This document shows, piece after piece, positions 3,614 to 40,621 of a stretch of DNA of 53,873 nt. Numbering within the stretch: position 1 is the first letter of the stretch; each line of letters begins with the position of its first letter. The notes beneath the pieces are model-generated. The model was not told the DNA's origin. It made no database searches and worked only from the letters and a program-made list of their open reading frames with translations. The position numbers were made by a program, and so were the translations under genes. The stretch spans positions 1 through 53,873 of the forward strand of contig CAZXWJ010000002.1 of assembly GCA_964644375.1 (NCBI GenBank), read 5' to 3'. This DNA is from an uncultured Desulfobacteraceae bacterium (lineage in GTDB: Bacteria; Desulfobacterota; DSM-4660; Desulfatiglandales; HGW-15).

Positions 3614-3620
3614 AGATGAA

Positions 3621-3654: not shown

Positions 3655-3691
3655 AAAATGACCATAGCGGCGAGAGGAATATCCCTCTCTT

Positions 3692-13526: not shown

Positions 13527-14337
13527 CTTCCAACTCTCTATCGGCCTAGGGTTTCAAAAGTTTTTATCTACGATGGGGTGTTGGTATTTTTGTTGAAAGG
13601 GAACACGTTGTCTCTGTCCGTGGCGATCACTTCTAAGGATTTAAAGGGGGCACACTCCTAAGTTATGCGCCCGTCAAAACGGAAATCCGGCGTGCCAAGC
13701 TACTGGAGATAAAAAAGATTCCGTTCACACTCAGATTCACTGATTCCTTTGATACCCGTCCTTACTTAAAATGAAAATGCGTAGAACAGAGATTTCTTTT
13801 TAAAAACACGTCTTCTCATGGTGAAATTCAGGGTGATTGTAGAAAATTGACAGTGTGACAACACAGATTTGGCCGGATTTTTTTATCGGGAATTCTTGTG
13901 AGGGCCTTGCGAGAATGAAGAGGCTCCGATTCACTGCACAAAATGGAGCTAAAGATCAATCTGACCGGTAACGTGAGGATCCCGCCCGCATATTTTTCGT
14001 GAGATAAAAGGCATTTACGCTTTAGGCCATATAAATTTATCCATAATTTACAGCAATAAATATTACAATCCAGGGGTATACGATGTCAACATAAATGAGG
14101 TCTCGATGAAATTCAATGGAACAGGATAGAAATACAGGTAACGCTTGTCTTGAAAAATAGTGCTTTTAAATTTCAGTTATTTTTACTTTCATGGATTCAG
14201 TTATCAAAATACACTATTGTAATTTCATGATACTTTATGGTATTTTTTTACATAAAATATTTGCAAACATTTACATAAATCTTCATCTTGCTTCAGGGTA
14301 AAAAGCTAACCTACTGAAATTATAAAAAATAAAAATT

Positions 14338-14352
14338 TGGCTTAAATATTGC
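14338..14352 (+). promoter_or_regulatory. Sigma54-like -24/-12 element facing the polysaccharide locus
   Basis: TGGCTTAAATATTGC has the exact GG-N10-GC spacing of the TGGCAC-N5-TTGC consensus. It lies about 745 nt upstream of the first locus gene, in an AT-rich region where chance matches are plausible. Confidence 0.25.
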
Positions 14353-15095
14353 TTATTAATGACAAGATGAATTTTATTTCAAAACGTTTCGTCTGCAATC
14401 ATTAACTAAATTTTCTCATGCAACATGCTTCTGAATTTGGTGTATGTCGCTCCAGCTAAGACACGAATTCTGTTCTATGAGAAGCATCCAATCTGCACTC
14501 AAATCGATCTGCTTGTTTTCAAGCCAGACATCAACGCAACCCACAATCATCGACGACTTTTATTCGGTTTAGAACTTTTCATTCTGTAAACGTGGTCAGG
14601 TAAAACCCAGCACGGCTATTGCAAATGACCTTTGCCGAAACCTCACGCCCGGCTCTCTTAACCCGAATTTTTTGTGGCACCACCAAGATAGACAGGGCAC
14701 GATATACGAATTCCGTGAATCATCACACACTATACGACATGGACGGCAACGCATTACATTGATGCCTGAATATAGATATGGAATTTCGATCGGTTCCATT
14801 CGGAAAGCCTCATCTGAGCAATTGAGTGCGACAAGGGGGCCGCCTATCATATCGCCTTTACTTAGGAAAACATAAATATTCCCCTGTTTCAGGACCTGAC
14901 ACCATGCTGCGTCATGGGTCTGGTTGAGTCGAACTTTATGCTTTCAAGGTGATGTTTACAAAAAATATCTTTTAATGATTCCTTGCCTATCGGCGGCAGT
15001 GTCTCCAATCGAGAAGTTGATAAATAAAGCATTGAACACAATCTTCTTAACGGACACTGTCCAATCAACCGACAACCTTTCTAAGGCGTTGAGAG

Positions 15096-16358
15096 ATGGC
15101 GATGAAAAGGGAAAGAGTCCTCATTACGGGATGCGGGGGAATGCTCGGCAACGCATTATACCCATATTTCGAGTCCTGGTATGATCATGTCTTGGCCACG
15201 GATAAAACAATCGACGAAGAATGGCTGGGCATGCTGGATATAAGAGAAGATGATAAGCTCTTTGAGCTTTTTCGCGAATACAAGCCGGATATTGTGCTGC
15301 ATCTGGCCGCTGAAACGGACCTGGAATTCTGTGAAACCCATCCAGATAAGGCCAGGGAAACCAATGAAAATGCAACCAAAAACATTGCCAAGCTTTCGGA
15401 AGAATATGGTGCCACGCTCGTCTATATCAGCACCGCCGGTGTTTTCAATGGTAAAAAAAGTGAGTTTTATACCGAAGCAGATCCGCCGAATCCTATCATG
15501 ATTTATGGAAAGACCAAATATGCCGGTGAAACGCATACCCTTGAACATTGTTCCAAATCATTCGTCGTCCGGGCCGGTTGGATGATGGGAGGAGGGAGAA
15601 GAAAAGAGAAAAAGTTTACTTACAAAATACTTCATCAGATCGTGGAAGGACGGAAGGAGATTTTTGCCGTCGTAGATAAATGGGGAACCCCCACATACAC
15701 ATATGATTTTGCAATCAATTTGTTTCTGCTTCTTGAAACCCGAAAATATGGACTTTATCACATGGTTTGTTCCGGAAAGGCTACCCGTTACGATGTCGCC
15801 GGGGAAATAATCCGCCTCTGTAATCGTCACGACATCCAACTCACCCCTGTCCATTCCGATTTCTTTTCCAAGGAATATTTCGCACCCCGGCCCGATTCCG
15901 AAATGATGATAAACCGCAACCTGAACACGCTGGGGATCAATCACATGCGGTCGTGGAAGGCTGCGCTATATGATTACATCAAGAATCAATTCCCCGATTA
16001 CATTGACGGAAAGAATGCATCGGATTCTCAAACTCCTCATATTCCCAGCCCCTATAACTTACACGACAACTCACCGGACTCGGAGCGACGGCGAGCGACT
16101 CGTCATACCTATCCTTCCACGGTTGAGTATGCGGTTTTAAACGGACAACCGGATCATTACGCAAAAAACCTTACCAAAGGCATCGTTATCGACATCAGTG
16201 ACTCGGGATTTTGTATGTATGTGTTTGATCAGCTTAAAATGGGCAAACATATCACCCTAAATAAGGGCGCGCTACCCACAAAACACAAACGCGCAACCGT
16301 TCAATGGGTCCGCCACGAGAGAAGTGGCGTATTCAGAGCCGGATGTACTTTTTCATAA
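15096..16358 (+). CDS. RmlD-like NAD(P)-dependent sugar-nucleotide reductase/epimerase fused to a C-terminal PilZ domain
   Basis: The N-terminal SDR part has 'VLITGCGGMLGNAL', 'YGKTKYAGE' (YxxxK) and an RmlD-type layout. The C-terminal ~95 aa carry both PilZ c-di-GMP signatures, 'RRRATR' (aa 331-336, RxxxR) and 'DISDSG' (aa 366-371, D/NxSxxG), followed by 'ATVQWVRHERSGVFRAGCTF'. Confidence 0.8.
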   Translation: MAMKRERVLITGCGGMLGNALYPYFESWYDHVLATDKTIDEEWLGMLDIREDDKLFELFREYKPDIVLHLAAETDLEFCETHPDKARETNENATKNIAKLSEEYGATLVYISTAGVFNGKKSEFYTEADPPNPIMIYGKTKYAGETHTLEHCSKSFVVRAGWMMGGGRRKEKKFTYKILHQIVEGRKEIFAVVDKWGTPTYTYDFAINLFLLLETRKYGLYHMVCSGKATRYDVAGEIIRLCNRHDIQLTPVHSDFFSKEYFAPRPDSEMMINRNLNTLGINHMRSWKAALYDYIKNQFPDYIDGKNASDSQTPHIPSPYNLHDNSPDSERRRATRHTYPSTVEYAVLNGQPDHYAKNLTKGIVIDISDSGFCMYVFDQLKMGKHITLNKGALPTKHKRATVQWVRHERSGVFRAGCTFS

Positions 16359-16439: not shown

Positions 16440-17981
16440 ATGAGAGTTTTATTCATTTACACTGATTTAAGTTCAGAAGTTGGATACTCGTCCGGCATCG
16501 GCATTCTGTCCGCCATTTTAAAAAAAAACGGCCACCAGACAAAGCTTATACATGTATCAGACGAAATCGGCTATCCATTGGACAATCTTCGAATCAACCG
16601 GGATATTCATAATTTTCAACCCGGCCTCATCTGTTTCTCCATTACCACCAACCATTGGTTTTCCTCCAGGCGAATCGGTATAAGTGTCCGACAAAACAGC
16701 AATACTCCCATCATCGTCGGGGGGCACCATCCCACGTCGGATCCAGAGCAGGTCATTCGGGAACCGTGGATTGACTTGCTTTGCCGCGGGGAAGGAGACA
16801 GGGCTTTGCCCGAAGTTGTCAGGCGCCTTGAGGCGGGAACACCTATGGACGGAATCCCCAACATCTTTCACAAACGAAATGGCCAAGTGTTTCGCGAACG
16901 TATCCTGGACTGGGTGGAGGACCTGGACACCCTGCCCGTTGAAGACCATGAGATCTTCAATTTTGGGAAAATCGTCGAAACGCGGAATGGATGGGCAGAG
17001 GTTATTGTGACCAGAGGCTGCCCATATCCCTGTAGCTATTGTTTCAACAAACCCCTGTTAAATGACTATAAAAGGACATTCGAGCAAATCGAAGGCCTGC
17101 ATTTCGACACAAAAAAATTTACGAACCGCAGGAGAAGCGTCGATGCGGTGATTTCAATGTTAAAGGGGATGAAAGAGGGCTATCCGAATATTGAACATTT
17201 CACTTTTGTTGACGATATCATGGCCCAAGACAGTCCTTGGTTCAGAAAATTTGCCGAACGTTATGCCGATGAAATCGGCCTTCCATACGCTTGTACTTCC
17301 CAGCCTCTGCTTTTCAACGAAAACCTGGCAAGGCTGCTCAAAGCATCAGGCTGCAAAGTGGTAAAGATGGGTATTGAGGCGGGAAATGAAAATATCAGAA
17401 GGACTGTGTTAAACCGACGAATAAGCAACGAGTACCTGGAAAAAGTCTTTCATATCGCAAGAGAATTCGACCTCAAACCACAGGCCTTCAACATGATCGG
17501 CATTCCCGGCGAAACTTTCAAAAACATGATGGAAACGGTGCGCCTTAACGCCCTGCTCAGGCCTTATATCGTATGGCTTTCGACCTTTAATCCATACCCC
17601 GGTACGGAACTTTACAAAAAGTGTCTTGAAAAAAACATGATAAATCAATCGAAAATCGATTCTGTTGAATCCTATCGAGAGGATTCGGTATTGAAGGATG
17701 AATTTCTTCCTCCCCTTGAGTTTAAAAAAATACGCGTGATGTTCCGTTGGCATCTGAATGCCTTTCTCGCCAATGGCGCGGAGAAAGTCTATAGGGAAAA
17801 CATAAGAGAGATTGATGGATTATCAGACGACCACTGGCGCAATGGAGAGGCGGAAAAAATATTTCTTGAGCGCGACAGAGAATTGGATCGTCATTTCAGG
17901 CACCGTTTGATCGATCATTATATCAGAAAGAAATATATCAATATCCTTTGGGGAGAACTTTACAATTATGACTTGACCTAA
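16440..17981 (+). CDS. B12-binding-domain radical SAM protein (class B), copy 1
   Basis: The N-terminal Rossmann-like cobalamin domain shows 'ICFSITTNHW..PIIVGGHHPT'. The radical SAM cluster motif is 'RGCPYPCSYC' (CxxxCxxC), followed by 'VKMGIEAGNENIRRTVLNR'. Confidence 0.85.
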   Translation: MRVLFIYTDLSSEVGYSSGIGILSAILKKNGHQTKLIHVSDEIGYPLDNLRINRDIHNFQPGLICFSITTNHWFSSRRIGISVRQNSNTPIIVGGHHPTSDPEQVIREPWIDLLCRGEGDRALPEVVRRLEAGTPMDGIPNIFHKRNGQVFRERILDWVEDLDTLPVEDHEIFNFGKIVETRNGWAEVIVTRGCPYPCSYCFNKPLLNDYKRTFEQIEGLHFDTKKFTNRRRSVDAVISMLKGMKEGYPNIEHFTFVDDIMAQDSPWFRKFAERYADEIGLPYACTSQPLLFNENLARLLKASGCKVVKMGIEAGNENIRRTVLNRRISNEYLEKVFHIAREFDLKPQAFNMIGIPGETFKNMMETVRLNALLRPYIVWLSTFNPYPGTELYKKCLEKNMINQSKIDSVESYREDSVLKDEFLPPLEFKKIRVMFRWHLNAFLANGAEKVYRENIREIDGLSDDHWRNGEAEKIFLERDRELDRHFRHRLIDHYIRKKYINILWGELYNYDLT

Positions 17982-18031: not shown

Positions 18032-19975
18032 ATGCTTTCCCATGAAATCGAAAAAAATCAGGATGTAATTAACATTCGAACGTATGTCGATATCCTTTTA
18101 AAGCAGAAAATGTTCATCATCGTATTTTGCCTTTCTGCTATGCTCTTTTCTCTGGGTATCACCTATTTCATTTCGGAAAAATATGAGACCGGTACTACGA
18201 TCTTTTATCGTCCTATCGAGATCAGCTTGATCAGGCAGAAAAGTACCGAGGCCTTCGGGGCGCCGGTACCTGCTCCGCCTTTTAAGGTGATTATCCAGAC
18301 TCTCCGGGATGCTGCAAAAAATGAGATCGTCCTTCGACCCGTGGTCAAGGCACTCCGACTGGACGAAGCATTGGAGATGGAATATGAAAGCCGGTATCAA
18401 CGCTGGTACTACGAGTCAAAGGACTACATAAAAACCAAAATTATAGATCTTTGGACGCTTCTCAAATATGGCAAGCTCATTGAAGAGGACCCTACCGTGG
18501 CCGCCATAATAAAACTGAGAAAAAATATGAATATCACCTCGACCAAAGACTCATACATCTACGTCCTCTCTGTCAGGGATAAATTCCCGAAAAGGGCGGC
18601 GATGATCGTCGATGCCGTTGGTGAAGGACTGGAAAATTTTCTAAAAGGGGAATATCAAAACCCGACCAAATGGAAATTGACACAGCTCACTGAACAGGTG
18701 ACAGCCAAACAACAAGAATTAAGTGAGCTTCGAGCACAACGCGAAGAGATATTTAAAGGGAATAGATTTATTTCCATACCGAATGAAACCTCAGAGGGAC
18801 TCTCCAACCTCTATGGTATGGAACTTGAGGAAATCAATCTTTCCGTTCAAATTGAAAAGAAAAGAAAAAGCATCGCAGAACTGGAAGCAGAGCTTCGAAA
18901 AGGCGCGAAAGATTATGTTCAGTCGGAAGACTTCAAAAAGATGAAGTCCGACCGACTTTTTCAAGAAATCGAACTCAAGGGCCTGATAGCCGGTAGGCAA
19001 CATCTGAGAACTTCAATCGCAAGATTGAAAAGAGAACTACAGGAACTTCCGGCCCTGAAGACAAAGATGGACGAAGTGGAAACAAAGATCGGTTCAGCCA
19101 CTCGTGCTCACGAGCATGCCCGGGATCTGTGTACTGAATTGCTTACACAAGTGCTGACTTTTCAGGACGGTACCCAAATTCTTAACAAGGCCGTGGTGCC
19201 GGACAAGCCTGTTCAGCCCATCAAAGTTTACCATGTCGGTTTATCCCTGCTTCTGAGCCTTGGCATTTCAACTGCTTTGGCCTTTTTATTCGATTTTTTA
19301 AATATTCGGACCTTCGTTTCTACAAGATCATCGAAAGGTTTCACAAAAGGCCCCGACGGGTCGTCCCAATTGACTGGGGCGAATTTGAATCCGTCTCATA
19401 CAGAAAGGCTCCTTGAAGATCTTTCCAGACAACTGGATGCAAAAGGCGGCAGTCTCTTCCTGCGAAAAGAAAACCATCTCGAGCTTGCCCATTCCCTTGA
19501 TCGGGGCCATAAACCTGCGCTCATCCCCTTTCCGCTCAAATCTGACAGCATTTTTGAACACGCGTTGAGAAAAAGACAGCCGATCATTACGGATGATCTC
19601 ATCGGAAAAAAAGATGTGCGATTAAGCGGCCGCAAAGGCTATCAAAATGAATCGATGATTGCATTGCCCATGATAGATGCTTCAGGGGAAGTGGTTGCCA
19701 TGGTTTCGCTCCATAACAAAACATCATCCCCTTTCACCTATGACGATAAACAAAAAGCCTTGACCATTTGGCGCACATACCTGATGGGACATCAGAGCAT
19801 GAACGAGGAAGATCTTACCGAGATTTATGCACCATCTATGCGGCGCACAAAACTTCCCTCAAAAGGACGAAAACAATTCCGGCTTGCATCACTCCTTCTA
19901 TATTCGTCGATAGGGGTCTGCGGTGCCGTGTTGTCTGCCTTGGGCTACTATTTCCTCAACAAATTGGGGTATTGA
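18032..19975 (+). CDS. Polysaccharide co-polymerase (Wzz/GumC-type chain-length determinant) with a cytoplasmic GAF domain and no kinase domain
   Basis: The Wzz-like N-terminus is 'INIRTYVDILLKQKMFIIVFCLSAMLFSLGITYFI'. A long coiled-coil periplasmic region follows, then 'VVPDKPVQP' and TM2 (aa ~400-423). The GAF-like region (aa ~455-585) reads 'GGSLFLRKENHLELAHSL..QPIITDDL..ESMIALPMIDASGEVVAMVSLHNK..FTYDD'. A third TM lies at the C-terminus. There is no Walker A motif. Confidence 0.75.
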   Translation: MLSHEIEKNQDVINIRTYVDILLKQKMFIIVFCLSAMLFSLGITYFISEKYETGTTIFYRPIEISLIRQKSTEAFGAPVPAPPFKVIIQTLRDAAKNEIVLRPVVKALRLDEALEMEYESRYQRWYYESKDYIKTKIIDLWTLLKYGKLIEEDPTVAAIIKLRKNMNITSTKDSYIYVLSVRDKFPKRAAMIVDAVGEGLENFLKGEYQNPTKWKLTQLTEQVTAKQQELSELRAQREEIFKGNRFISIPNETSEGLSNLYGMELEEINLSVQIEKKRKSIAELEAELRKGAKDYVQSEDFKKMKSDRLFQEIELKGLIAGRQHLRTSIARLKRELQELPALKTKMDEVETKIGSATRAHEHARDLCTELLTQVLTFQDGTQILNKAVVPDKPVQPIKVYHVGLSLLLSLGISTALAFLFDFLNIRTFVSTRSSKGFTKGPDGSSQLTGANLNPSHTERLLEDLSRQLDAKGGSLFLRKENHLELAHSLDRGHKPALIPFPLKSDSIFEHALRKRQPIITDDLIGKKDVRLSGRKGYQNESMIALPMIDASGEVVAMVSLHNKTSSPFTYDDKQKALTIWRTYLMGHQSMNEEDLTEIYAPSMRRTKLPSKGRKQFRLASLLLYSSIGVCGAVLSALGYYFLNKLGY

Positions 19976-22016: not shown

Positions 22017-22913
22017 ATGAGATGGTTCATTTTGCAAAGCATGAGGGCAAGGTCTATGCGAAGTGACTCGGAGCGTAAGATACTGTTTAACGATCAAAGC
22101 CTACGGGCTGAATTTGTTTTCGTTGAATCAGACGAAGAATATGAAGAGGAAACTCAGGGCAAAATTTTCTGTCTGCCCGCCGGCCGAGTGTATGGACTGG
22201 ACATGCCCCTGAGGGAAAAAACACTCAGGACCCTTTACAGGGCAGGAGAAGTCCTGGCCAGCCTGACGGCTCTGATTATTTTTTTTCCGGTGATGCTTGC
22301 CATTGCGCTTGTCATCAAACTGGACTCGCCCGGCCCTGCTCTTTTTTTCCAAAAAAGGGTCGGTCGCAGTAAACTGGCCAAGGGAAGATCATTGAATAAA
22401 AAGGACGGTGGTCCCGTTTCATCTGGTGATTCCGAAAATATATTTTATGTTCCTCAAACATTCTGGTTCATCAAATTCAGAACGATGTATGCGGATGCCA
22501 AAGAGAGATTTCCAAAACTTTACAATTATAATTACTCAAAAAAGGAGATCGATCATATTCCCTTCAAAGTGGAAAAGGACCCCCGCATAACGCGGGCCGG
22601 TCAGTGGCTGAGATCATCGACATTGGACGAATTGCCCAATTTTTGGAATGTATTAACCGGGGATATGCGACTGGTCGGACCCAGGCCTGAAATTCCGGAG
22701 ATGCTGCCCAATTATCGGCCCCATCAAATGACAAAATTTACGGTTAAACCGGGAATAACCGGCCTGCCTCAGATCAACGGAAGAGGACGGTTGACCTTCC
22801 AGAGGACAGTGGCTTACGATCTGGAATACGTTGAGAAGAAGTCTGTGTTTCTTGATCTGAAAATTTTGGCCGTAACGGTATGGAAGGTGATAACAAGGCA
22901 AGGTGCATTTTAA
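22017..22913 (+). CDS. Initiating phosphoglycosyl transferase (bacterial sugar transferase family, WbaP/EpsL-like)
   Basis: There is a single TM, 'LASLTALIIFFPVMLAIALVI', followed by 'DSPGPALFFQKRVGR', 'KFRTMYADA', 'DPRITRAGQWLRSSTLDELPNFWNVLTGDMRLVGPRP'. The start is uncertain; an alternative ATG lies at 22203. Confidence 0.85.
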   Translation: MRWFILQSMRARSMRSDSERKILFNDQSLRAEFVFVESDEEYEEETQGKIFCLPAGRVYGLDMPLREKTLRTLYRAGEVLASLTALIIFFPVMLAIALVIKLDSPGPALFFQKRVGRSKLAKGRSLNKKDGGPVSSGDSENIFYVPQTFWFIKFRTMYADAKERFPKLYNYNYSKKEIDHIPFKVEKDPRITRAGQWLRSSTLDELPNFWNVLTGDMRLVGPRPEIPEMLPNYRPHQMTKFTVKPGITGLPQINGRGRLTFQRTVAYDLEYVEKKSVFLDLKILAVTVWKVITRQGAF

Positions 22914-22931: not shown

Positions 22932-24260
22932 ATGAGGAGTCCTGTAATGGAATATTCTTCTCATATAAATACAGTAAAAAAAATTATGATATGCCTGTTT
23001 TCGTTACTGCTGATTTCATGTATCGTTGCGCCGGAACCCTCTTCCCATGCCCAATTCTTTAAGGCGTTACGTATAAAGAGCAAGGCGGACAAGGTGGTAA
23101 AACTCATCGAACTCCGGCGCTCCGAAGGGCAGGATGTTCAGAATGCCCTTGTCAAAGCAAGGCGAGTAAAAGAACTTGCCGACCAAAAAAGACTTGACGA
23201 TGCCGATGCCTTGCTTGACGAAATCATGGCCGACCTCAAGGCCACGACGGATTCATCCAAAGAGGTCTCCACCGAAACGCGAACGGCCGTTTTTAGGCCG
23301 GGAAAAATTCGAACGAATAAATCGGATCGGTTCGGCATATGGACGGCCACCCTGGAGGGGAAGAATCTTACCTTACGGTTATCTGATCCAAAGCGGCAGA
23401 TGTCTCATCCCCGTGTTTCCCCGGACAAGAAGTGGATCATGTTTACGCGGTACAACAAAATGCTCAAAGACGGATATGCTTACGAGAAAGGCGGATATAA
23501 AAACACGGAAATAGGCATCATGCGTTTAGACGGCACGGAACTGAAAACAATCGTGGGCCCCAAACCGGGGGTGCTCAACTGTAACGGCAGTTGGACACCG
23601 GACGGTCAAAGCATCCTTTATCTTTCAACGGACAACCCGAAGAAGAGGCCTCGGCTCTACTGGGTGAGCCTAAAGACCGGGAAAATAACCCTAGCCCCTA
23701 CCCCGGATAAACTGAAAGTAGTGTCCGATCCGCATCAAGTGGATGATACGATCGTGTTCCCGGCGCCCTCCACCGGACCGGAACCCTCCGGAATATGGAT
23801 CATGAAAAAAAACGGCACCCAGGCAAGACAGTTGACTCATCCGCCAAATAAACGATTATCAAAGGCCAAAGGCCCTCAGCATCTGGGAGATTATGACCCC
23901 CGGCTCTCTCCGGATGGCTCAAAAGTAGCCGTTATGCGGAACTATGGCAAGGATATCTATCACATCGTTGTCATCGATGTTGCCTCAGGAGAGGAGATAG
24001 ATATCTCGCCAAAAGAGGTTGCGGAGGGAGTGCCCCACTGGTCCAGTGATGGAAGGCTGCTGATCTTTAGGCATGTGAATCTAAAAAACCTGAAAGACTA
24101 CGGCATTTACACCATAAAACCTGATGGGACAGGCAGAAAATTGATTCCTCTTCCCCGAGGTGTGCTGCACAGTCCGCAGCCAAACTTTTTTCCCGAAGAG
24201 GGATCGTCGCCGAAAACGAGGATTATTTTCAGCACAGAGAAAGTAAAATTTTTGGACTAA
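22932..24260 (+). CDS. TolB-like beta-propeller lipoprotein/periplasmic protein (PD40/WD40-like repeats)
   Basis: The lipoprotein-like signal is 'LFSLLLISC'. PD40-type repeat signatures recur: 'PRVSPDKKWIMF', 'SWTPDGQSILY', 'PRLSPDGSKVAV', 'PHWSSDGRLLIF', 'IKPDGTG'. Confidence 0.7.
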   Translation: MRSPVMEYSSHINTVKKIMICLFSLLLISCIVAPEPSSHAQFFKALRIKSKADKVVKLIELRRSEGQDVQNALVKARRVKELADQKRLDDADALLDEIMADLKATTDSSKEVSTETRTAVFRPGKIRTNKSDRFGIWTATLEGKNLTLRLSDPKRQMSHPRVSPDKKWIMFTRYNKMLKDGYAYEKGGYKNTEIGIMRLDGTELKTIVGPKPGVLNCNGSWTPDGQSILYLSTDNPKKRPRLYWVSLKTGKITLAPTPDKLKVVSDPHQVDDTIVFPAPSTGPEPSGIWIMKKNGTQARQLTHPPNKRLSKAKGPQHLGDYDPRLSPDGSKVAVMRNYGKDIYHIVVIDVASGEEIDISPKEVAEGVPHWSSDGRLLIFRHVNLKNLKDYGIYTIKPDGTGRKLIPLPRGVLHSPQPNFFPEEGSSPKTRIIFSTEKVKFLD

Positions 24261-24314
24261 AACAATGTTCCATCCATAAACATACAGGCCCCCGAAAAGG
24301 CTCCAGACGTTATT

Positions 24315-25073
24315 ATGGAACGGTATCTTACCACAACGATTGATCTTATCGACGGCAGACCGACTATTCACCTAAAGCACCTGAAAGAGAGAGGGCTCCG
24401 CGTGAAAGACCGAACCGCAAAACGGATGTCAATGAAAAATCGATTTATGAAGATTTCGTCCTTCGGCCCCTTGGAAGACATCCCCTGCCCTAACTGTCAG
24501 TCCGAAAATTTTGATATTATGGCCAATCAATCAATTTTTGGCGAAAATTTTCAAATCGTCCGCTGTAAAAAATGCGGGCTTATTCACACAAACCCGCGTC
24601 CCACCAAAGACTGGAAGAAACGCTTTTATGACCCCAAATATAACAGGTATATGGAAGATAAGGGTCGTAGCTTCGTCTACTTACCCTCCCCCAAAAAAAT
24701 CCTTCGCGATGGGGGTCTCCTCTTTATTGAAACGCCGAACTATCTGACCTATTACTACCTTAAACGGTACTTTAATTTTTTAACCCCAATTTATTGTAAA
24801 ATCACAGGGAGATATGATCTTCCATGGGGCCCCTTTGATCACTTGTTTCATTGGACACACACAACGCTTATCAGTGCCCTCTCCCATTCAGGATTTGAGC
24901 ATGGCAAAACCCTTACCTTTCGCAACTATAGATCGGAGATCCCAACGGATCGTCCCCTATCGTTAAGCTTCAGGCAATATGCTGAAATGACTCACCGCGT
25001 ATTTAGGCGCTTGGGCGCCTCTTTTGACTTTAGACCGATTCTTCTGGTTATAGCAAAAAAAAGCATCGGATGA
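24315..25073 (+). CDS. Methyltransferase-like protein lacking the SAM-binding core (possible gene remnant)
   Basis: The N-terminal zinc ribbon 'CPNCQS..VRCKKCGLIHTNPRP' and the C-terminal 'LRDGGLLFIETPN...HLFHWTHTTLISALSHSGF' match class I methyltransferases of the Methyltransf_23 type. The roughly 100 aa that should carry the GxGxG motif I are absent. The start is uncertain (internal ATGs at 24426 and 24432). Confidence 0.5.
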   Translation: MERYLTTTIDLIDGRPTIHLKHLKERGLRVKDRTAKRMSMKNRFMKISSFGPLEDIPCPNCQSENFDIMANQSIFGENFQIVRCKKCGLIHTNPRPTKDWKKRFYDPKYNRYMEDKGRSFVYLPSPKKILRDGGLLFIETPNYLTYYYLKRYFNFLTPIYCKITGRYDLPWGPFDHLFHWTHTTLISALSHSGFEHGKTLTFRNYRSEIPTDRPLSLSFRQYAEMTHRVFRRLGASFDFRPILLVIAKKSIG

Positions 25074-25235
25074 TGAAGACAGAGTTGTCAATCTTGAAAA
25101 GGATTCGTGTTGAGTCTATACGTAAGGTTGACTTGTTCCCGGCTAGATGAATTTACCCCAGAGGATTGAAACAACTATTATGCAAGTTGGCCTGACATAG
25201 TAAAATTTTTCAATCATTAATTGGAAGCTAGGGAT

Positions 25236-26309
25236 ATGGAAGTTCACTCTACTCAACATAGCCTCAATAGAATACATGTCCTGTTTTTACTCCTGATAGC
25301 CATCGTATGGGGCCTTCCGCTTGATGGATATGCACGACCTCCGGATACCCCATGGGGAGTCTCGATCAACCCGGCCAATTTCCCAAACGACACTGGGGAA
25401 GATGCCTGGCGAGCGCTTTTAAAGACAGGCGCAATCGGAAGTCATGGTTCTTTTATCTGGACCTGGAATTTTCAGGCAGGATTCAAACGCTATGAACTTC
25501 TTGTTCCGCTTATGCATACCATTGGCTTGAAAAGCTTTGCGCAGGTATCCCCTAATTTTTTAGGGGCCCCGTCACCTCCATATGGCGTCGGCTCAGAGAA
25601 AAGTTACGCAGACAGCGAAGTCCGTGCAAAATATCTCGAGGATATTGAACGCATGGCCAGGCTGCAACCAAACTACCTCGCTCTGGCAACGGAAATCAAT
25701 TTGATGTATTACTTTCATCCGGGTGAATTCGAAAATTATATTTCTCTTTACCGCCAAGCCTATGGTTTGGCAAAATCACTTTCTCCGCGCACGCAGGTGG
25801 GGGTGACTTACCTGTACAGATTGTTCGTATTTGACAAAGAATTTCATCTGCCATCTCTTTTGGGTCCCCACGACTTCATCGCCTTTACAACCTATCCGGA
25901 CTGGTGGGTGAAGAAAGGTTACTTTAATTCCTGTGCCGAACTCCCCGCAGAGTATTACGGCCGAATCCGCGAGGTTTTCCCGAACACTCCCATCGTCTTT
26001 TCCGAAATTGGATGGCCTAGTGTTGGGGAGCACAGCAGCCCGGAAGAACAGGCCATTTTTGTTTCGAGACTGCCGGAATTGATGGTGGATGTACAGCCTG
26101 ACCTTGTGGTCTGGACCCTGCTTCATGACACCGGATTTTTTCAAAAAGAGTACCTAGACCAGGACACAATAGATTTTATCGAAAGCCTGGGGATCCATAT
26201 TGACAAACTGTTTGACCGATTTAACGGAATGGGATTATGCAATCGGGATGGAACATTTAAGCCCGCATGGGATGAGGCACTGGATCTGGATTTCACCCCT
26301 CCGCCGTAA
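25236..26309 (+). CDS. Secreted clan GH-A-like (TIM-barrel) glycoside hydrolase candidate
   Basis: The signal peptide is 'VLFLLLIAIVWGLPLDGYA'. Two Glu-containing strands are spaced about 95 aa apart, as in clan GH-A: 'LALATEINLMYY' and 'IVFSEIGWPS'. The second resembles the GH17 nucleophile motif 'SESGWPS'. Confidence 0.5.
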   Translation: MEVHSTQHSLNRIHVLFLLLIAIVWGLPLDGYARPPDTPWGVSINPANFPNDTGEDAWRALLKTGAIGSHGSFIWTWNFQAGFKRYELLVPLMHTIGLKSFAQVSPNFLGAPSPPYGVGSEKSYADSEVRAKYLEDIERMARLQPNYLALATEINLMYYFHPGEFENYISLYRQAYGLAKSLSPRTQVGVTYLYRLFVFDKEFHLPSLLGPHDFIAFTTYPDWWVKKGYFNSCAELPAEYYGRIREVFPNTPIVFSEIGWPSVGEHSSPEEQAIFVSRLPELMVDVQPDLVVWTLLHDTGFFQKEYLDQDTIDFIESLGIHIDKLFDRFNGMGLCNRDGTFKPAWDEALDLDFTPPP

Positions 26310-26408
26310 CACGATGTATTTTTTCTATACCCATACAAATGGGTAATGATGCACGGTTAGGGCTAAGAATTTTCGGGTTTCATACCGTTAGTGAATAGAC
26401 GAGGATCA

Positions 26409-27833
26409 ATGATTATGAAGGTCGTCTTTCTGCAACGAGATTCATTTGTAAAGATTTCCATCGAGTTGCTGTCCGGTATTCTAAAGCAAAACGGGCATGC
26501 ATGCGAACTCTATATCGAGTCCGGCGAAAATCAATTTCTTTCTTCGGCGCTTTCGAGCGGTGCAGACTTGTTCGCCTTTTCCTGTACGACCGGAGGAGAG
26601 CAATGGGTCTATGATACCGCTGAGAGGCTCAAAAAGCAAACCTCAACGCCCATCATCGTGGGCGGCCCCCATACCACATTCTTCCCTCAAATGATCCATA
26701 ATCCTCACATCGATTACATCTGCAGAGGCGAGGGGGAGGAGGCCCTCCTCGAACTACTTTCGGTTCTCCATCGACCTGACGCCATCAGACAGATTCGAAA
26801 CATCTGGTCAAAAGACTTGCAGGGAAACGTTCATGAAACGGAGGTGAGGCCCTTCTTTCGTGATCTCGATAACATTCCCTTGCCGGATTTTGGCATCTAT
26901 ACCAAATACCCCTACATGACACCATACAACTTGGAGATGTTCCCCGTTATGACCGGTCGAGGATGCCCTTTTGCCTGCAGTTACTGCTTTAACAAGGCCT
27001 ACCGTGACCTCTACCGAAAAGGCGGCCGGTATTTAAGAAAAAGAAGCCCTGAGGTGATGATCGAGGAGCTTGTTAGGGCTAAAAAAAAGTGGGGAGTCAA
27101 AAAGATCAACTTTGTAGACGATTCCTTTTTTCTTTTTCCGAAATGGTTCGAGGAGTTTTACCCTCTTTATATAAAGCATGTAAACTTACCCTTTATCATC
27201 AACGTCGAAGCGACTCATGTGAAGGACGATCTTGTAAAAAAAGTAAGTGAAATGGGTTGCATTTGTGTAAGGATGGGAGTTGAGACCGGAAACGATACCC
27301 TGAGGAAAGAAGTCCTCAACAAAAAAGTCAACAATGAGCAGATTAGAAGAGCGGCCGCCAGCATCAAGAAATACGGCATGAACCTGAGCACATACAACAT
27401 GCTCGGGCTCCCCGGAGAAACTTTCGAAAACGCCATGGAGACCTATCAATTGAACAGGGAAATCGGCACGAATTTCGCGCAGTGCTCATTACTGCAGCCA
27501 TATCCCGGGACGAAAATAAACGATTATGTTCGAGAAATGGGCATCTATGGACAGACCGACCGAGAGATAACGTTAAACGCGTCATTTTTTGCAACAAGCA
27601 AAATCATATTGGAAAATGAAAGGGAAATCACTAATCTTCAAAAGCTCATGCAGGTATTCATTCAAATGAAGGTGCCTGCGAGTACAGTCAGGAAGATCGT
27701 AAAACTTCCGGAAAATTTATTTTTTCACTATGTTTTTAGGCTCAGTTTTATTATCGGAAAGATAAAAAATCAGCATATAAAGCTGATTCCTTTGATCCGC
27801 CTGGGGTTGCATTCGCTTAGCTACATGAAATAG
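26409..27833 (+). CDS. B12-binding-domain radical SAM protein (class B), copy 2
   Basis: The start was chosen at ATG 26409 (GAGGA upstream). Motifs are 'FAFSCTTGGEQW..PIIVGGPHTTFFP', 'GRGCPFACSYC' (CxxxCxxC) and 'VRMGVETGNDTLRKEVLNK'. It is collinear with the 16440 gene. Confidence 0.85.
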   Translation: MIMKVVFLQRDSFVKISIELLSGILKQNGHACELYIESGENQFLSSALSSGADLFAFSCTTGGEQWVYDTAERLKKQTSTPIIVGGPHTTFFPQMIHNPHIDYICRGEGEEALLELLSVLHRPDAIRQIRNIWSKDLQGNVHETEVRPFFRDLDNIPLPDFGIYTKYPYMTPYNLEMFPVMTGRGCPFACSYCFNKAYRDLYRKGGRYLRKRSPEVMIEELVRAKKKWGVKKINFVDDSFFLFPKWFEEFYPLYIKHVNLPFIINVEATHVKDDLVKKVSEMGCICVRMGVETGNDTLRKEVLNKKVNNEQIRRAAASIKKYGMNLSTYNMLGLPGETFENAMETYQLNREIGTNFAQCSLLQPYPGTKINDYVREMGIYGQTDREITLNASFFATSKIILENEREITNLQKLMQVFIQMKVPASTVRKIVKLPENLFFHYVFRLSFIIGKIKNQHIKLIPLIRLGLHSLSYMK

Positions 27834-31060: not shown

Positions 31061-32548
31061 GTGCAAAATAAGGCTTCCACTTTAATTTTGAAATATGGCA
31101 TGACCTCCCTTTCAGGCGCTTTGATTGCCGTCGCCGCCTGGCAGATTTTACGGCTGGAGTTTCGGTACGCCCTCGCCGTTATCGGGGGCATCGTTGTATT
31201 ATGTGCAGGGTTGGCCCTGATCAAGCGCTTGGACGACTACCTTATCTATATTCTGATCTTCAATGTGACCTTTGCGCAGTTCGGAAAATGGATGTTGCCC
31301 CAGCGAGAGGACATCGTATTTGCGCGCGGCATCAGTGTGGGGCTTGCAGAGTTAATCATTTTGATGGCCTACTTGTCATGGTATGCAAAAATTTTCATCT
31401 CCCGTACAGAATCGATGCCAAGGTTTCAAAAGGCTGAATATCTCATCCTCTTGCTGATTCTGTGTCAGGTGATGTCCATGATCGGTGCACCTAAAAAAAT
31501 CCTGAGTTTTCTCGATATCGTTTACAACATCAAGCATGCGTTGATTTATTTTTTTATCGCCCGAAAGATCAAATACGGTCATTTAACGGGCATTATTCTT
31601 ATTTTTTTATTTGCGATTTTTCTTGAAAGCTCGATAGGAGTCTACGAACGCTATACAGGTAATGTGGGGATTGGGAATGCCAAAGGGAGTGCCGAGGGAC
31701 TGGGAACACAGTTCATTGTCCCCGGCATCGAGCATGTCATTCGGTCAGAAGGGACAACTGCGGATTCCCATTCTCTCGGCCTATACTTCGTCATGCTATT
31801 GCCGGTTCCCCTGGTTTTCACAGCCATGAGATTCTTAAAAACGCCTTACAAGGTCGCAACGGGATTGGTTTTTATTATCGGTTCCATCGGTCTTTTAGTC
31901 ACCTTTACACGCTCCGGATGGATCTGTTTTGCCCTCTCTTCGGCCTTTTCTCTAAGCGTCATCATCTTCCTATGGAGGCAGAGCCGGGCCATTATTATGC
32001 TCCTCGCTGTTCTTCTGGGTTTGAGTCTTTTTTACCCACAGGGCTATCAAAAAATCCACCAGCGCTTCCAGAGCGCTCCATGGGAACTGATCACCGAACG
32101 ATTGGATCAGTCGAAAACGGCGTTCGGCGTATGGAAAAGTCATTTTTTTTTCGGATGCGGGGCAGCAAACTACATGCCGTATATCGAAAACACAGATACT
32201 CCCCAGTATGACACCGGTGAGCTTCCCGCCCATGTTATGGTTCTTCTGATTGCGGCCGAGATCGGATTGTTTGGCGTGACCGCTTATTATGGCATCATTT
32301 TTTTGGCCATGTTCCGGTGCTGTCAAATGCTTGGCTGTAGCGATCGACTGATCAGGGGGGTGGCGCTCGCCCTCCTGACGGCATTTATCGGCTATCTTCT
32401 CGATGGTCTGACGAGTCCGCTGGGTCGCAATGTCGTACCCTATTACCAGTTGTGGGTGTACATCGGCATCAGTATGTCCCTAAAAAGAGTCGTGGAGGAA
32501 AAGGGCACCCTATCCGTGAAACCGATCAACGAGGAGGTTACCCCATGA
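31061..32548 (+). CDS. O-antigen ligase/polymerase-family membrane protein (Wzy-like)
   Basis: This is a polytopic membrane protein of 495 aa with a large loop after 'TFTRSGWICFALS' and 'FFFGCGAANY', as in Wzy_C-type proteins. It has a GTG start. Confidence 0.7.
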   Translation: MQNKASTLILKYGMTSLSGALIAVAAWQILRLEFRYALAVIGGIVVLCAGLALIKRLDDYLIYILIFNVTFAQFGKWMLPQREDIVFARGISVGLAELIILMAYLSWYAKIFISRTESMPRFQKAEYLILLLILCQVMSMIGAPKKILSFLDIVYNIKHALIYFFIARKIKYGHLTGIILIFLFAIFLESSIGVYERYTGNVGIGNAKGSAEGLGTQFIVPGIEHVIRSEGTTADSHSLGLYFVMLLPVPLVFTAMRFLKTPYKVATGLVFIIGSIGLLVTFTRSGWICFALSSAFSLSVIIFLWRQSRAIIMLLAVLLGLSLFYPQGYQKIHQRFQSAPWELITERLDQSKTAFGVWKSHFFFGCGAANYMPYIENTDTPQYDTGELPAHVMVLLIAAEIGLFGVTAYYGIIFLAMFRCCQMLGCSDRLIRGVALALLTAFIGYLLDGLTSPLGRNVVPYYQLWVYIGISMSLKRVVEEKGTLSVKPINEEVTP

Positions 32549-34614: not shown

Positions 34615-36201
34615 ATGGCAACGATATCTCCAAATCCGACCACCGAATCGCTCCTGAGGGAGTCAAATCATATCTCAGGCCTGGCCTCCGTTGAAAAAGA
34701 ACTGGTGGGCGTCGCCGGTGGAGCGGCCGTTAATTTCATCGGGAAAATCCTGGGGACCGGCATCTTGTATCTTTATTCCGTTGTTGTCGCCAGGATGTTG
34801 GGGCCCCAGATTTTCGGCCTGTTCATACTGGGGCTGACGATCATCAATCTTGCCGGAATATTATGCCGGCTGGGGTTGGACAACGGTATTATTAAATTTG
34901 CGGCTCAATACCAGGGCATCGGCGATAAGGCCCGGATGAAAGGCGCCCTGAACGATGCCTTGAAGTATTCCTTCGTTATCTCCATTGCCGTGGGTGGTCT
35001 GTTGTGCCTTTTTGCAGAACCCGTCATTTCTCATGGCCTCGGCAAACCCGACCTGGTCAATATCGTGAGATTATTGTCGGTTTCCCTGCCTTTTACTTCT
35101 CTCCTTTTCATCGCCCTAGGATTCACCATGGGGTTGAAAATCATGAAATACTGGGTTTATGTTCAAAACCTGTTTTGGCCCTTGTCAAATCTTCTCCTTG
35201 CCGTGTTATTTTTATACCTGGGGTTCCATATTTACGGAGTGGTCGCAGCCCAAGTGGTTTCGATCATCTCAGCCTCCCTTCTTGCCCTCTATTGCGTCCG
35301 ACGGGCCTTTCCGGAAATCGTTTCGGCGCCGTCCATCCCGGAGACGCGAAGGCTTTTTGAGGTATCCTTTCCACTGTCCTTGACGGTTTTTTTGAATTTT
35401 ATCGCCTCCTGGACCGATACTTTGATGCTGGGGTACTTCAACGCTTCGGAAGAGGTCGGCATTTATGCCGCAGCCATGAAGACCGCTCTGCTCACGAGCG
35501 TCTTCTTGCTATCCTTCAATATCATATTTGCACCCACCATTTCCGACCTATACCATAAAGAAGAAACTCAAAAGCTGGAGAACATGCTCAAGATCATTAC
35601 CCGGTGGGTGTTTACCATCAGCCTGGTCGTGTTTATAGGTATTTCGTTGCGTGCAAGAACCATCACGGGCTTGTTTGGTCCCGAGTTCGTTGCGGGTTCC
35701 GGTTGTCTCATTTTACTTTCCCTGGCCCAGGTTGCTAACGGGTTCGTGGGTCCGGTGGGCTTAATGCTTGCGATGACCGGACACCAAAAGCATCTGATGG
35801 CCACGACCCTTGGCACTTGCCTGTTGAATGTCACACTCAACGGCATCCTGATTCCGATGTACGGAATTCTGGGGGCGGCCGTTGCTACCGGCACCTCGCT
35901 GGTTGCACTCAACGCTGGCATGCTTTTTCAAGTTCATTTCTTATTAGGAATGCATCCCCACAATAAGAAGTTTGTTAAAATCATTTTTTTTGGTGTGATG
36001 ACATATGGCGTGATGTATGGCGTTGATTGCCTGTTCCCCGGACTGGATACAGGGTTGGGCCTTATGGGCTGGGGTGCCGCTTTGCTTCTCCTGTATGCGG
36101 GAATGATTGCCTGGTTTGGGTTTTATGAGGAGGATCGGTTTATTTTTGCGACGCTCAAACAGAACATTTTGAATCACATGTCTCAGCAAAGAGGACGATA
36201 G
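34615..36201 (+). CDS. Oligosaccharide flippase (Wzx-like, MOP superfamily polysaccharide biosynthesis protein)
   Basis: The 528-aa product is hydrophobic throughout, with about 14 helices. It has the typical N-terminus 'GVAGGAAVNFIGKILGTGILYLYSVVVARMLGPQIFGLF'. The ATG directly abuts the upstream stop. Confidence 0.8.
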   Translation: MATISPNPTTESLLRESNHISGLASVEKELVGVAGGAAVNFIGKILGTGILYLYSVVVARMLGPQIFGLFILGLTIINLAGILCRLGLDNGIIKFAAQYQGIGDKARMKGALNDALKYSFVISIAVGGLLCLFAEPVISHGLGKPDLVNIVRLLSVSLPFTSLLFIALGFTMGLKIMKYWVYVQNLFWPLSNLLLAVLFLYLGFHIYGVVAAQVVSIISASLLALYCVRRAFPEIVSAPSIPETRRLFEVSFPLSLTVFLNFIASWTDTLMLGYFNASEEVGIYAAAMKTALLTSVFLLSFNIIFAPTISDLYHKEETQKLENMLKIITRWVFTISLVVFIGISLRARTITGLFGPEFVAGSGCLILLSLAQVANGFVGPVGLMLAMTGHQKHLMATTLGTCLLNVTLNGILIPMYGILGAAVATGTSLVALNAGMLFQVHFLLGMHPHNKKFVKIIFFGVMTYGVMYGVDCLFPGLDTGLGLMGWGAALLLLYAGMIAWFGFYEEDRFIFATLKQNILNHMSQQRGR

Positions 36202-39595: not shown

Positions 39596-40621
39596 ATGCA
39601 AAAAACAATGAGGGTATCTGGAAAGTTCAAGACCGTCTTCTTCCATGTCAAGGCAGCAAAATATCTCATGCGTACATGCTTTTTTTCGATCATCCTGGCC
39701 GCCATGGGATGTCAAACCAGCCCCGGCCCGGCTTTGACATCTTCCGACATCTCGAACCTCAACGCCCGATCCACTCCAACCGATTATATACTCGGCTCGG
39801 GGGACGTTATTGAATTGAAATTTTTTTACAACGCCGCTCTGGATGATCAATTAACCATCGGTCCCGATGGGAAGATTTCCCCGCAACTCATCGGCGAAGT
39901 CAAAGCAGCAGGACTACCCCTGGCAGGACTCGATACCCTGCTCACTGAAAAATATTATAACGCACTTGGATACTCCAAAAAAACTTACACCCTTGGCATC
40001 GGGGATGTAATTGCGGTAAAATTTTTTTACAACAGTGAGCTTAACGACGAGGTGCCCATTCGCCCGGACGGAAAAATTTCTTTGAATCTCATCGACGATG
40101 TAAAAGCGGCGGGTCTGACCCCTGCCGAGCTGGATGCCCTGATAACCGAGAAGTACGCCTATCTTCTTAAAACGGAGAATGCCCCTGCCGTTACGGTGAT
40201 GGTAAAAGAATATAAGGTTCCCGAACTGTCCGTGACCCTGAGAGCATCGGCCTCACAGAAGGTTTATTTGGGGGGAGAGGTGGCCAAGCCCGGGATGATC
40301 ACTATACAGGGGACATTGAGAAGTCTGGATGCATTGATCCTTGCTGGTGGGGCGCTCAAGACCGCCCAGTTGAACAATGTCTTGCTGATCAGAAACAACG
40401 GTAGCCAAAAGCCGGATCCCCACATCATCGACCTCAACAAGATCATCTCCGGCGAGTTGATGGATGTCCGTCTCAAGCCCTATGATATCGTTTATGTGCC
40501 GAAGACCACCATCGAGCAGGTCGATCAATTTATGCAGCACATCTACCATATCATCCCGGTGAGTGCGCTATTCGGCGTGCAGTATGACCTGAACCGTGAT
40601 TCCACCATAAGGGTGGAGTAG
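39596..40621 (+). CDS. Outer-membrane polysaccharide export protein (Wza/OPX family) with a duplicated Poly_export domain
   Basis: The lipoprotein-like signal is 'FFSIILAAMGC'. Two Poly_export repeats are present: 'YILGSGDVIELKFFYN..GPDGKISPQLIGEVKAAGL' and 'YTLGIGDVIAVKFFYN..RPDGKISLNLIDDVKAAGL'. The SLBB segment is 'KVYLGGEVAKPGMITIQGTLRSLDALILAGG'. An alternative start lies at 39668. Confidence 0.8.
   Translation: MQKTMRVSGKFKTVFFHVKAAKYLMRTCFFSIILAAMGCQTSPGPALTSSDISNLNARSTPTDYILGSGDVIELKFFYNAALDDQLTIGPDGKISPQLIGEVKAAGLPLAGLDTLLTEKYYNALGYSKKTYTLGIGDVIAVKFFYNSELNDEVPIRPDGKISLNLIDDVKAAGLTPAELDALITEKYAYLLKTENAPAVTVMVKEYKVPELSVTLRASASQKVYLGGEVAKPGMITIQGTLRSLDALILAGGALKTAQLNNVLLIRNNGSQKPDPHIIDLNKIISGELMDVRLKPYDIVYVPKTTIEQVDQFMQHIYHIIPVSALFGVQYDLNRDSTIRVE

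Follow-up and report, generated by a model that had tools for sequence, protein, structure and literature searches.

A GAF domain inserted between a kinase-less PCP-2-like co-polymerase and a fused mini membrane protein in a Wzx/Wzy-dependent polysaccharide locus

Here we describe a gene from an uncultured Desulfobacteraceae bacterium in which a polysaccharide co-polymerase (PCP), a cytoplasmic GAF domain, and the apparent counterpart of a separately encoded mini membrane protein are joined in one open reading frame (ORF). The gene occupies positions 18032 to 19975 on the plus strand of a 53,873-nucleotide stretch of DNA (GenBank assembly GCA_964644375.1, contig CAZXWJ010000002.1), the whole of which is called the window below, and it lies in a gene cluster of the Wzx/Wzy-dependent type. 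Its architecture, topology signals, homologies, and lack of a local kinase, along with the fused mini-protein and a GAF copy number that varies among relatives, are all directly observed. With about even confidence, we read the product as a co-polymerase/export adaptor of the Wzx/Wzy/Wza pathway that belongs to a kinase-less PCP-2-like subfamily and would be a GAF-gated fusion with the mini-protein. The parts of the gene, including its three transmembrane (TM) helices, are listed below, with disorder taken from the predicted local distance difference test (pLDDT) of an AlphaFold model.

18032..19975, plus strand: PCP-GAF-mini-TM fusion gene, one ORF of 647 amino acids (aa)
18107..18175, plus strand: TM1 (aa 26-48), preceded by a cytoplasmic N-terminus of 25 aa; Kyte-Doolittle peak 2.33, model helix 26-47
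18176..19225, plus strand: periplasmic PCP domain (aa 49-398), from AlphaFold2 secondary structure, Foldseek, and conserved residues
19226..19303, plus strand: TM2 (aa 399-424); hydropathy peak 2.14, model helix 399-422
19304..19390, plus strand: cytoplasmic linker 1 (aa 425-453); a conserved juxtamembrane NIRTF, then disorder (pLDDT <50, aa 428-450)
19391..19795, plus strand: GAF domain (aa 454-588), from Pfam, a PDB profile search, the model, Foldseek, and a 12-copy alignment
19796..19855, plus strand: cytoplasmic linker 2 (aa 589-608); disordered, pLDDT <50 at aa 590-614
19856..19972, plus strand: mini-protein-homologous segment (aa 609-647); basic cluster RRTKLPSKGRKQFR, TM3 (aa 617-640), C-terminal YYFLNKLGY

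The initial annotation had drawn attention to positions 19394-19786, corresponding to aa 455-585 of this ORF, and had described the protein as a PCP with the usual succession of TM1, periplasmic coiled coil, and TM2. This layout was upheld by hydropathy, the model, and Foldseek; hydropathy and the model together gave three TM segments, at aa 26-48, 399-424, and 617-640. In the AlphaFold model, the periplasmic domain is built of an alpha/beta base and three very long helices (aa 186-377), and it is closed by a proline-rich PVQPIKVYHVG motif, with P393, Q395, P396, I397, Y400, and H401 invariant in the family alignment. After TM2, a segment reading F.NIR.FF.S.G.KGR is conserved throughout the PCP subfamily. 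Linker 1 contains 4 K/R versus 1 D/E, as expected on the cytoplasmic side, and 7 K/R stand ahead of TM3; because K/R clusters thus follow TM2 and precede TM3, the GAF domain should be cytoplasmic and the last five residues periplasmic. The whole-protein model, computed from 41 sequences, has a mean pLDDT of 78.8 and a predicted template modeling score (pTM) of 0.46.

In Foldseek comparisons, residues 1-425 have a fold closest to that of Wzc (9r68_I, E 3e-13; 7nhr_A, E 5.6e-11), followed by WzzE and KpsE. The Pfam models Wzz (PF02706; aa 13-58, 20.4 bits versus a gathering threshold of 25.5) and GNVR (PF13807; aa 382-419, 17.5 bits versus 27.7) both remained below threshold, and chain-length-determinant models of NCBIfam matched partially, far under their cut-offs. 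Among these, the XrtA/PEP-CTERM chain length determinant TIGR03007 was rejected as an assignment, the match being partial and scoring 48.3 bits against a cut-off of 278.85. Because several homologs have Wzz or GNVR hits on record, the window PCP is a divergent member of the PCP-2 type and not a non-member.

A GAF domain on the cytoplasmic side had also been proposed, and it was borne out by Pfam, in which the region within aa 458-574 passes the gathering thresholds of both GAF_2 (PF13185; aa 458-572, 37.3 bits versus 28.6, E 3.8e-9) and GAF (PF01590; 34.2 bits versus 22.4). A model of the GAF domain alone has a pLDDT of 85.4 and a pTM of 0.81, with about 90 pLDDT across the domain in the AlphaFold models, and the top 50 Foldseek matches listed are all GAF domains, with TM-scores of 0.6-0.7. 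The conserved module comprises 127 aa (aa 456-582), and 12 copies of it align without gaps, with GGS (472-474), SLD..H (488-493), and an NK..F...D motif (562-572) as landmarks. Invariant in the 12 copies, in module numbering, are G17, G18, S33, L34, D35, H38, P40, P44, P46, and S51, as well as F53, S77, Y82, S86, P91, G97, S104, H106, and F113. Polar positions S19, D35, H38, S77, Y82, and H106 are listed as invariant together with F113, and this set of polar residues argues for a conserved pocket or interface in the module.

Relatives of the GAF module were collected by an exhaustive profile search of 1.84 billion representative proteins, which returned 2406 matches at E<=1e-3, 167 of them at E<=1e-30. 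Within the top 150 GAF matches, the PCP-GAF-TM3 order was found only in P0007, P0011, P0044, P0083, and P0085 (5 representative clusters; P numbers denote proteins and L numbers loci). Hybrid histidine kinases with the order REC-GAF-PAS-HisKA-HATPase(-REC) make up nearly all of the other relatives checked among these 150; their GAFs, situated at about aa 183-305, are 36-43% identical to that of the window, align ungapped over 127 aa, and hold the same invariant residues. Since the closest relatives reside in hybrid histidine kinases, the module is a signaling GAF borrowed from two-component kinases, its family being otherwise that of REC-GAF-PAS histidine kinases. The placement of the GAF right after REC in the top non-PCP relatives (again at about aa 183-305) would also suit a very unlikely alternative, in which the domain docks a stand-alone phosphorylated response regulator and export is coupled to a two-component system instead of a metabolite. 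No REC-domain protein is encoded in the window, however, P0042 and P0058 carry the GAF without a preceding REC, and we know of no precedent for such docking.

The third TM helix that the initial annotation had placed after the GAF domain is present (aa 617-640), but it is not an appendage of that domain; it corresponds to a conserved mini-protein that has been fused to the PCP. In two related loci without GAF (L006, 11352-11540; L007, 11358-11519), the PCP stop codon falls within an overlap of 11 nucleotides (nt) with a very small gene. The proteins encoded, of 62 and 53 aa, end in ...RYFIIAAIGALLAYGVYYGLNKLGY directly before the stop codon, and the window protein ends alike, in ...LGYYFLNKLGY. 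Among the 20 GAF-less loci recovered from species-representative genomes, a mini-TM ORF of 40-60 aa lies directly after the PCP stop or overlaps it in 17 (L009-L014, L016, L018-L026, and L030). These 20 loci come from Pirellulales, Nitrospirota, Krumholzibacteriia, Brocadiaceae, Acidobacteria, and beta-, gamma-, alpha-, and delta-proteobacteria, and a mini-TM ORF beside the PCP spans at least eight phyla or classes. The mini-proteins match no Pfam family and share a pattern of their own: a basic cluster K/RRRxLP followed by xxRY, a single TM helix that bears G at its center, and a terminal Y.LRK.GY.

A profile hidden Markov model built from the 17 unfused mini-proteins only was run against the 1028 six-frame ORFs of the window. 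It gave a single significant match, aa 609-647 of the PCP-GAF protein (E 5.9e-6), with the next match at E 0.48 despite the many other TM-rich proteins encoded in the window. The possibility that TM3 is a generic hydrophobic tail was rejected by this profile test. Altogether, judged by sequence homology, the TM3 segment of the window protein is the fused mini-protein of the PCP subfamily, and the GAF domain is an insertion into the linker of a PCP-mini-protein fusion.

The initial annotation had noted no kinase domain, Tyr-rich tail, or bacterial tyrosine kinase (BY-kinase) gene in the locus, and our motif and family scans agree. Walker A ([AG]x4GK[ST]) is absent from the window protein, which has no P-loop family match at E<=10 either; a six-frame Walker A scan of the 53.9-kb window gave one match, antisense to a glycosyltransferase gene and in no real ORF. 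The motif of low-molecular-weight protein tyrosine phosphatases (Wzb type) was not found in the 53.9-kb window. Nor was a cytoplasmic Tyr cluster found in the protein, evident by linkers that hold 0 and 1 Tyr, and its four C-terminal Tyr sit in or just past TM3. No P-loop, AAA_31, CbiA, or ParA-type matches were obtained in the window or within +/-10 kb of six related loci, and no BY-kinase-type ORF was present in 30 related loci (373 kb of Walker-A scan), in which the Walker-A matches were unrelated P-loop proteins only (ClpB, a Ras-like GTPase, and AAA_16). A BY-kinase partner at the locus is therefore seen neither in the 53.9-kb window nor in the 373 kb of related loci. With no BY-kinase domain, no Tyr cluster, and no neighboring stand-alone BY-kinase, the window protein falls outside both PCP-2a and PCP-2b.

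These results also bear on the proposal that the GAF domain occupies the position of the kinase. The position holds true, since the domain is cytoplasmic and follows TM2, but an evolutionary replacement is not supported: the ~30 closest PCPs have neither a kinase nor any cytoplasmic domain. Because related loci have no BY-kinase, the GAF displaced no kinase in this lineage, and the PCP subfamily is without a local kinase throughout.

A kinase acting from a distance was weighed separately. According to this alternative, which we consider quite unlikely, a remote BY-kinase or pseudokinase docks on the juxtamembrane tail after TM2 and drives the PCP cycle, with the GAF as an accessory input only. 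Such a partner could use the F.NIR.FF.S.G.KGR segment conserved across the subfamily, and the pseudokinase EcpK, which is not encoded beside epsV, lacks Walker motifs (PMC12004946), so that motif scans could miss a protein of this kind. Against it stand the lack of P-loop, AAA_31, CbiA, or ParA-type matches and of BY-kinase-type Walker-A ORFs in the regions scanned above, and the partner actually conserved beside the PCP is the mini-TM protein.

A large-database search with the protein yielded 41 proteins, nine of which, besides the window protein, carry a GAF domain, whereas ~30 homologs are ~450 aa long and end shortly after TM2 with no cytoplasmic domain. Combined with the GAF search, the PCP-GAF-TM3 order was found in P0002-P0009, P0011, P0083, P0085, and P0044; the architecture thus recurs in at least 10 distinct sequences. 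The fusion is nevertheless rare, amounting to 5 representative clusters and about a dozen sequences, and only 1 of 22 species-level genome matches carries it (L015, an uncultured Pirellulales bacterium). The GAF-bearing relatives point to Planctomycetota/Pirellulales. In the full-text literature search, no paper was found in which a GAF domain is described on a PCP, Wzc, or chain-length determinant.

We give hardly any weight to the possibility that the fusion is an artefact, i.e., a frameshift, a misassembly, or a pseudogene joining the PCP to a downstream GAF gene. The source is uncultured, and with the PCP and mini-protein genes of relatives overlapping by ~11 nt, one indel could fuse the frames. 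On the other hand, assemblies from NCBI, JGI, ENA, and Logan together supply at least 10 distinct sequences with the same order, which are 36-50% identical, and conservation runs through the whole ORF. Because the fusion recurs in independent sequences, it is not an assembly or frameshift artefact. Moreover, no stand-alone GAF-TM3 gene was found among the 150 best GAF relatives.

The homologs form a graded series. Three proteins (P0012, P0029, and P0037) are PCP-mini-protein fusions with a linker of 30-60 residues and no GAF; two tandem GAFs are found in P0003 (L003, 9143-11485) and P0004; and P0007 and P0009 keep decayed or recombined fragments of a second GAF copy. GAF copy number, which is 0, 1, or 2 in the linker, is therefore evolutionarily labile. 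Within kind, GAF-1 copies are 69-80% identical and GAF-2 copies 78%, compared to 50-59% between kinds; since each groups with its own kind, the duplication predates these proteins and was later lost in some. In a rough neighbor-joining tree of the PCP part, all fused forms (0, 1, and 2 GAFs) make up one clade. The simplest history suggested by these sequences would begin with separate genes, followed by their fusion, GAF insertion in the linker, and later duplications and losses.

The existence of GAF-less relatives (P0012, P0029, P0037, and the ~30 unfused proteins), which makes the GAF dispensable for core function, fits an alternative that we regard as unlikely, namely that the GAF is a ligand-independent scaffold that dimerizes or oligomerizes at the cytoplasmic face and thereby keeps PCP protomers and the mini-protein helix assembled, much as proposed for EcpK with EpsV. 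Many GAF domains are mainly dimerization modules. A phosphorylation-independent scaffold model also exists for PCP-2 (PMC12004946). Two observations speak against a scaffold: the polar residues invariant across the PCP and histidine-kinase contexts at 36-43% identity fit a binding site better, and the disordered linkers of ~25 residues on both sides are a poor design for a rigid scaffold.

If the GAF domain binds a ligand, a cyclic-nucleotide-type molecule is our leading guess. A profile of 11 family GAF modules matches, in the PDB, PDE2A GAF-A/B (E 6e-10), CyaB2, and PDE5/6 GAFs, with the matches to GAFs that bind cyclic nucleoside monophosphates (cNMP) spanning 6e-10 to 1e-3 at ~20% identity, and the first Foldseek match is the Lcd1 GAF with cAMP bound (5w10). 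Four of the five NKFDE residues are present as N562, K563, F568, and D572 with the F-x3-D spacing, the family motif being SLHNK-x4-F-x3-DK. The NKFDE motif is said to distinguish cNMP-binding GAFs, although it makes no ligand contact (PMC11977230). Because this NKFD-type motif is kept and the best PDB matches are cNMP-binding GAFs, ligand gating of the PCP via the GAF domain is plausible.

Several points weigh against this reading and should be set beside it. The fifth NKFDE position is K573, not E. In Foldseek, cAMP-, cGMP-, heme- (DosS/DosT), and Met-sulfoxide-binding (fRMsr) GAFs score almost like unliganded ones, and a firm ligand call by fold was rejected on account of these near-equal scores across ligand classes. 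In the HMMER alignment, family S19 and D35 do align with S424 and D439 of GAF-B in 1mc0, both presumed cGMP contacts; most of the presumed PDE2A contacts differ, and only two of about nine are conserved. No nucleotide cyclase is visible within the 53.9-kb window. Three ORFs (at 24315, 25221, and 12789) belong to no family; they have no P-loop-type Pfam match at E<=10 and are missing from the syntenic loci. A gene for a kinase, pseudokinase, or phosphatase may lie in another part of the genome, as ecpK is away from epsV. Finally, the pTM of the whole-protein model is only 0.46, hence any packing of TM3 on TM1/TM2 is conjectural.

For GAF gating, the following scheme can be drawn, in which ligand, regulatory direction, and consequences for oligomerization are all inferred. 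The PCP would normally pair with a tail-anchored mini-protein whose single TM helix stands between a basic N-terminus in the cytoplasm and a ...Y.LRK.GY end, and this mini-protein would be a membrane subunit of the PCP assembly. The GAF domain would bind a cytoplasmic small molecule, and the ligand-driven GAF conformation, or GAF-GAF pairing, would be relayed to TM2 and TM3 along the short, flexible tethers on its two sides. The outcome may be altered packing of the mini-protein helix on the PCP transmembrane ring or altered oligomerization of PCP protomers, by which Wzy polymerization and hand-over to Wza would be tuned. In Wzc, cycles of tyrosine phosphorylation do this tuning. The Wzc kinase ring and phosphorylation state control octamer assembly, and EcpK has been proposed as an EpsV scaffold that works without phosphorylation (PMC12004946). 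The more specific idea, that a messenger or metabolite on the GAF directly switches polymerization or export by moving the tethered mini-subunit helix, and that the mini-TM protein is an unrecognized core subunit, is offered tentatively and is itself rather doubtful.

To our knowledge, control of every well-understood PCP-2 protein in Wzx/Wzy capsule and exopolysaccharide pathways lies with a BY-kinase or with a BY-pseudokinase scaffold, the latter being a recent proposal. Direct small-molecule control is known to us for synthase-dependent systems (Alg44, PelD, BcsA, and PgaCD), and we know of no Wzx/Wzy case. How PCPs with neither a BY-kinase nor a pseudokinase are controlled is a question on which the locus gives two handles. 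One is the conserved mini membrane protein, the companion of a broad PCP subfamily without kinases that is represented in Planctomycetota, Nitrospirota, Krumholzibacteriia, Brocadiaceae, Acidobacteria, and several classes of proteobacteria. The other is a naturally occurring series of unfused forms, fused forms, and fused forms with one or two GAFs, which resembles a sensor being wired into a machine. If the GAF binds a messenger, small-molecule control would extend to the most widespread pathway type, and if the proposal is true, it would represent a third, small-molecule-based mode of PCP-2 control beside tyrosine phosphorylation and pseudokinase scaffolding. The mini-TM partner of this widespread kinase-less subfamily is the more general by-product and may interest specialists as much as the GAF. 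Altogether, the PCP-GAF fusion is real, rare, and mechanistically suggestive, and a metabolite, in place of phosphorylation, may control the pathway.

The genomic setting is a Wzx/Wzy-dependent polysaccharide cluster whose genes, all on the plus strand, extend from 15096 to 40621. It begins with an RmlD-like reductase, a B12-binding radical S-adenosylmethionine (radical-SAM) enzyme, the PCP-GAF gene, a nucleotidyltransferase, an epimerase, and Bac_transf; continues with a PD40 propeller protein, two unassigned ORFs, a second B12 radical-SAM enzyme, an amine oxidase, and four GT2 glycosyltransferases; and ends with Wzy, Wzx, a type I phosphodiesterase-family protein, a sulfotransferase, and a Wza-type exporter. 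The pathway genes most relevant to the co-polymerase, with the exporter as a member of the outer membrane polysaccharide export (OPX) proteins, are as follows.

15096..16358, plus strand: RmlD-like reductase, first gene of the operon (RmlD_sub_bind, 2.9e-64)
22017..22913, plus strand: initiating phosphoglycosyl transferase (Pfam Bac_transf, 8.4e-55)
31061..32548, plus strand: Wzy-type polymerase, whose activity PCPs modulate (Pfam Wzy_C, 2.1e-15)
34615..36201, plus strand: Wzx-type flippase (Pfam Polysacc_synt, 1.2e-28)
39596..40621, plus strand: Wza-type OPX protein, expected periplasmic partner of a PCP-2 (Pfam Poly_export, 1.5e-34, in two stretches, plus SLBB)

Six gene-called related loci, three with GAF and three without, share core synteny, with a common core of Wza, the RmlD-like reductase, B12 radical-SAM, PCP, amine oxidase, Bac_transf, Wzy, GT2s, Wzx, and Phosphodiest. 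Two copies of the Poly_export (PES) domain, ...YILGSGDVIELKFFYN... and ...YTLGIGDVIAVKFFYN..., stand in tandem in the Wza-type exporter, and its L003 ortholog (2485-4065) likewise gives two Poly_export matches. A set of tailoring enzymes is conserved across the related loci (16440-17981, 26391-27833, 28026-29342, 36204-37820, and 38791-39411), comprising two B12-binding radical-SAM enzymes, a flavin amine oxidase, a protein of the type I phosphodiesterase/nucleotide pyrophosphatase family, and a sulfotransferase; given this unusual set, the polymer is probably heavily modified.

The RmlD-like reductase has a PilZ-like C-terminal tail (aa ~330-420, nt 16083-16355) with RRATR at aa 332 and DISDSG at aa 366, which fit RxxxR and DxSxxG, both motifs by which PilZ binds cyclic di-GMP (c-di-GMP). 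The tail scores 19.3 bits for PilZ, below the gathering threshold of 22.5; a PilZ hit is recorded for the L001 ortholog, and the motif pair is kept in L001 (8620-9864), L007 (5662-6933), and L016 (1341-2642). This reductase-PilZ-like fusion is found in GAF-bearing and GAF-less loci alike, and the tail is a possible second, independent candidate for nucleotide input, on a sugar-nucleotide enzyme.

Between Bac_transf and the second radical-SAM gene, 22932-26309 (plus strand) encodes the PD40 beta-propeller and two family-less ORFs, one of 252 aa that includes a CxxC region resembling a zinc ribbon and one of 362 aa; these genes are absent from L001, L003, L006, and L007 and thus represent a window-specific insertion. 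On the minus strand, a 2867-aa ORF (45198-53801) combines the supersandwich and catalytic domains of GH94 with a glucoamylase-like domain and a weak GT2 region, i.e., the layout of cyclic beta-1,2-glucan synthases, and with a GC content of ~60% versus 45-50% in the rest of the window, this segment may be foreign or compositionally distinct. Upstream of the operon, a 1.5-kb stretch (13527-15095) is without convincing ORFs, and an Rfam scan gave no match anywhere in the window and no riboswitch in this 1.5-kb leader.

Among known systems, the closest in structure is Wzc, the PCP-2a of the Escherichia coli K30/K-12 systems for group 1 capsule and colanic acid. It shares with the window protein two TMs around a large helical periplasmic domain, the proline-rich segment before TM2, the cytoplasmic location of the regulatory domain after TM2, and work alongside Wzy, Wzx, and a Wza-type OPX protein. 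At an identity of ~12-15%, the window protein differs from Wzc in lacking the BY-kinase, Walker A/A'/B, and the C-terminal Tyr cluster, with no Wzb at the locus, and it has a GAF domain and a third TM instead. EpsV/EcpK and HfsA/HfsB (Blocher et al. 2025, PMC12004946) likewise include a kinase-domain-free PCP-2 in a Gram-negative Wzx/Wzy pathway, and PCP-2 proteins of the EpsV/EcpK type are proposed to act without Tyr phosphorylation (PMC12004946). EpsV and HfsA, however, need a separate scaffold of BY-pseudokinase fold, whereas none was detected at the window locus, where the conserved partner is the mini-TM protein and the module is a GAF.

Alg44 resembles the window protein as an inner-membrane co-polymerase with a cytoplasmic small-molecule-binding domain thought to control polymerization post-translationally (PMC8461298). 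It is synthase-dependent, with a single TM, an N-terminal PilZ that binds c-di-GMP, and a membrane fusion protein (MFP)-like periplasmic domain, in contrast to the Wzx/Wzy pathway, PCP fold, and GAF after TM2 described here. PelD (TM-GAF-GGDEF), of Pel synthesis, also places a membrane-anchored cytoplasmic GAF in a polysaccharide secretion machine (PMC8461298), but c-di-GMP is bound at its degenerate GGDEF I-site and not at the GAF, and it is synthase-dependent, is not a PCP, and has no periplasmic domain. In functional terms, Alg44 and PelD, both synthase-dependent, come closest as earlier examples of polysaccharide machines fitted with a domain that senses nucleotides (PMC8461298). At the level of the domain, the cNMP GAFs of PDE2A, PDE5/6, CyaB1/2, and Lcd1 share N, K, F, and D with the window GAF, which has K and not E at the fifth position. 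The REC-GAF-PAS-HisKA-HATPase kinases, which are uncharacterized, are soluble and have a histidine kinase as output, whereas the window GAF is tethered at both ends to membrane helices of the PCP.

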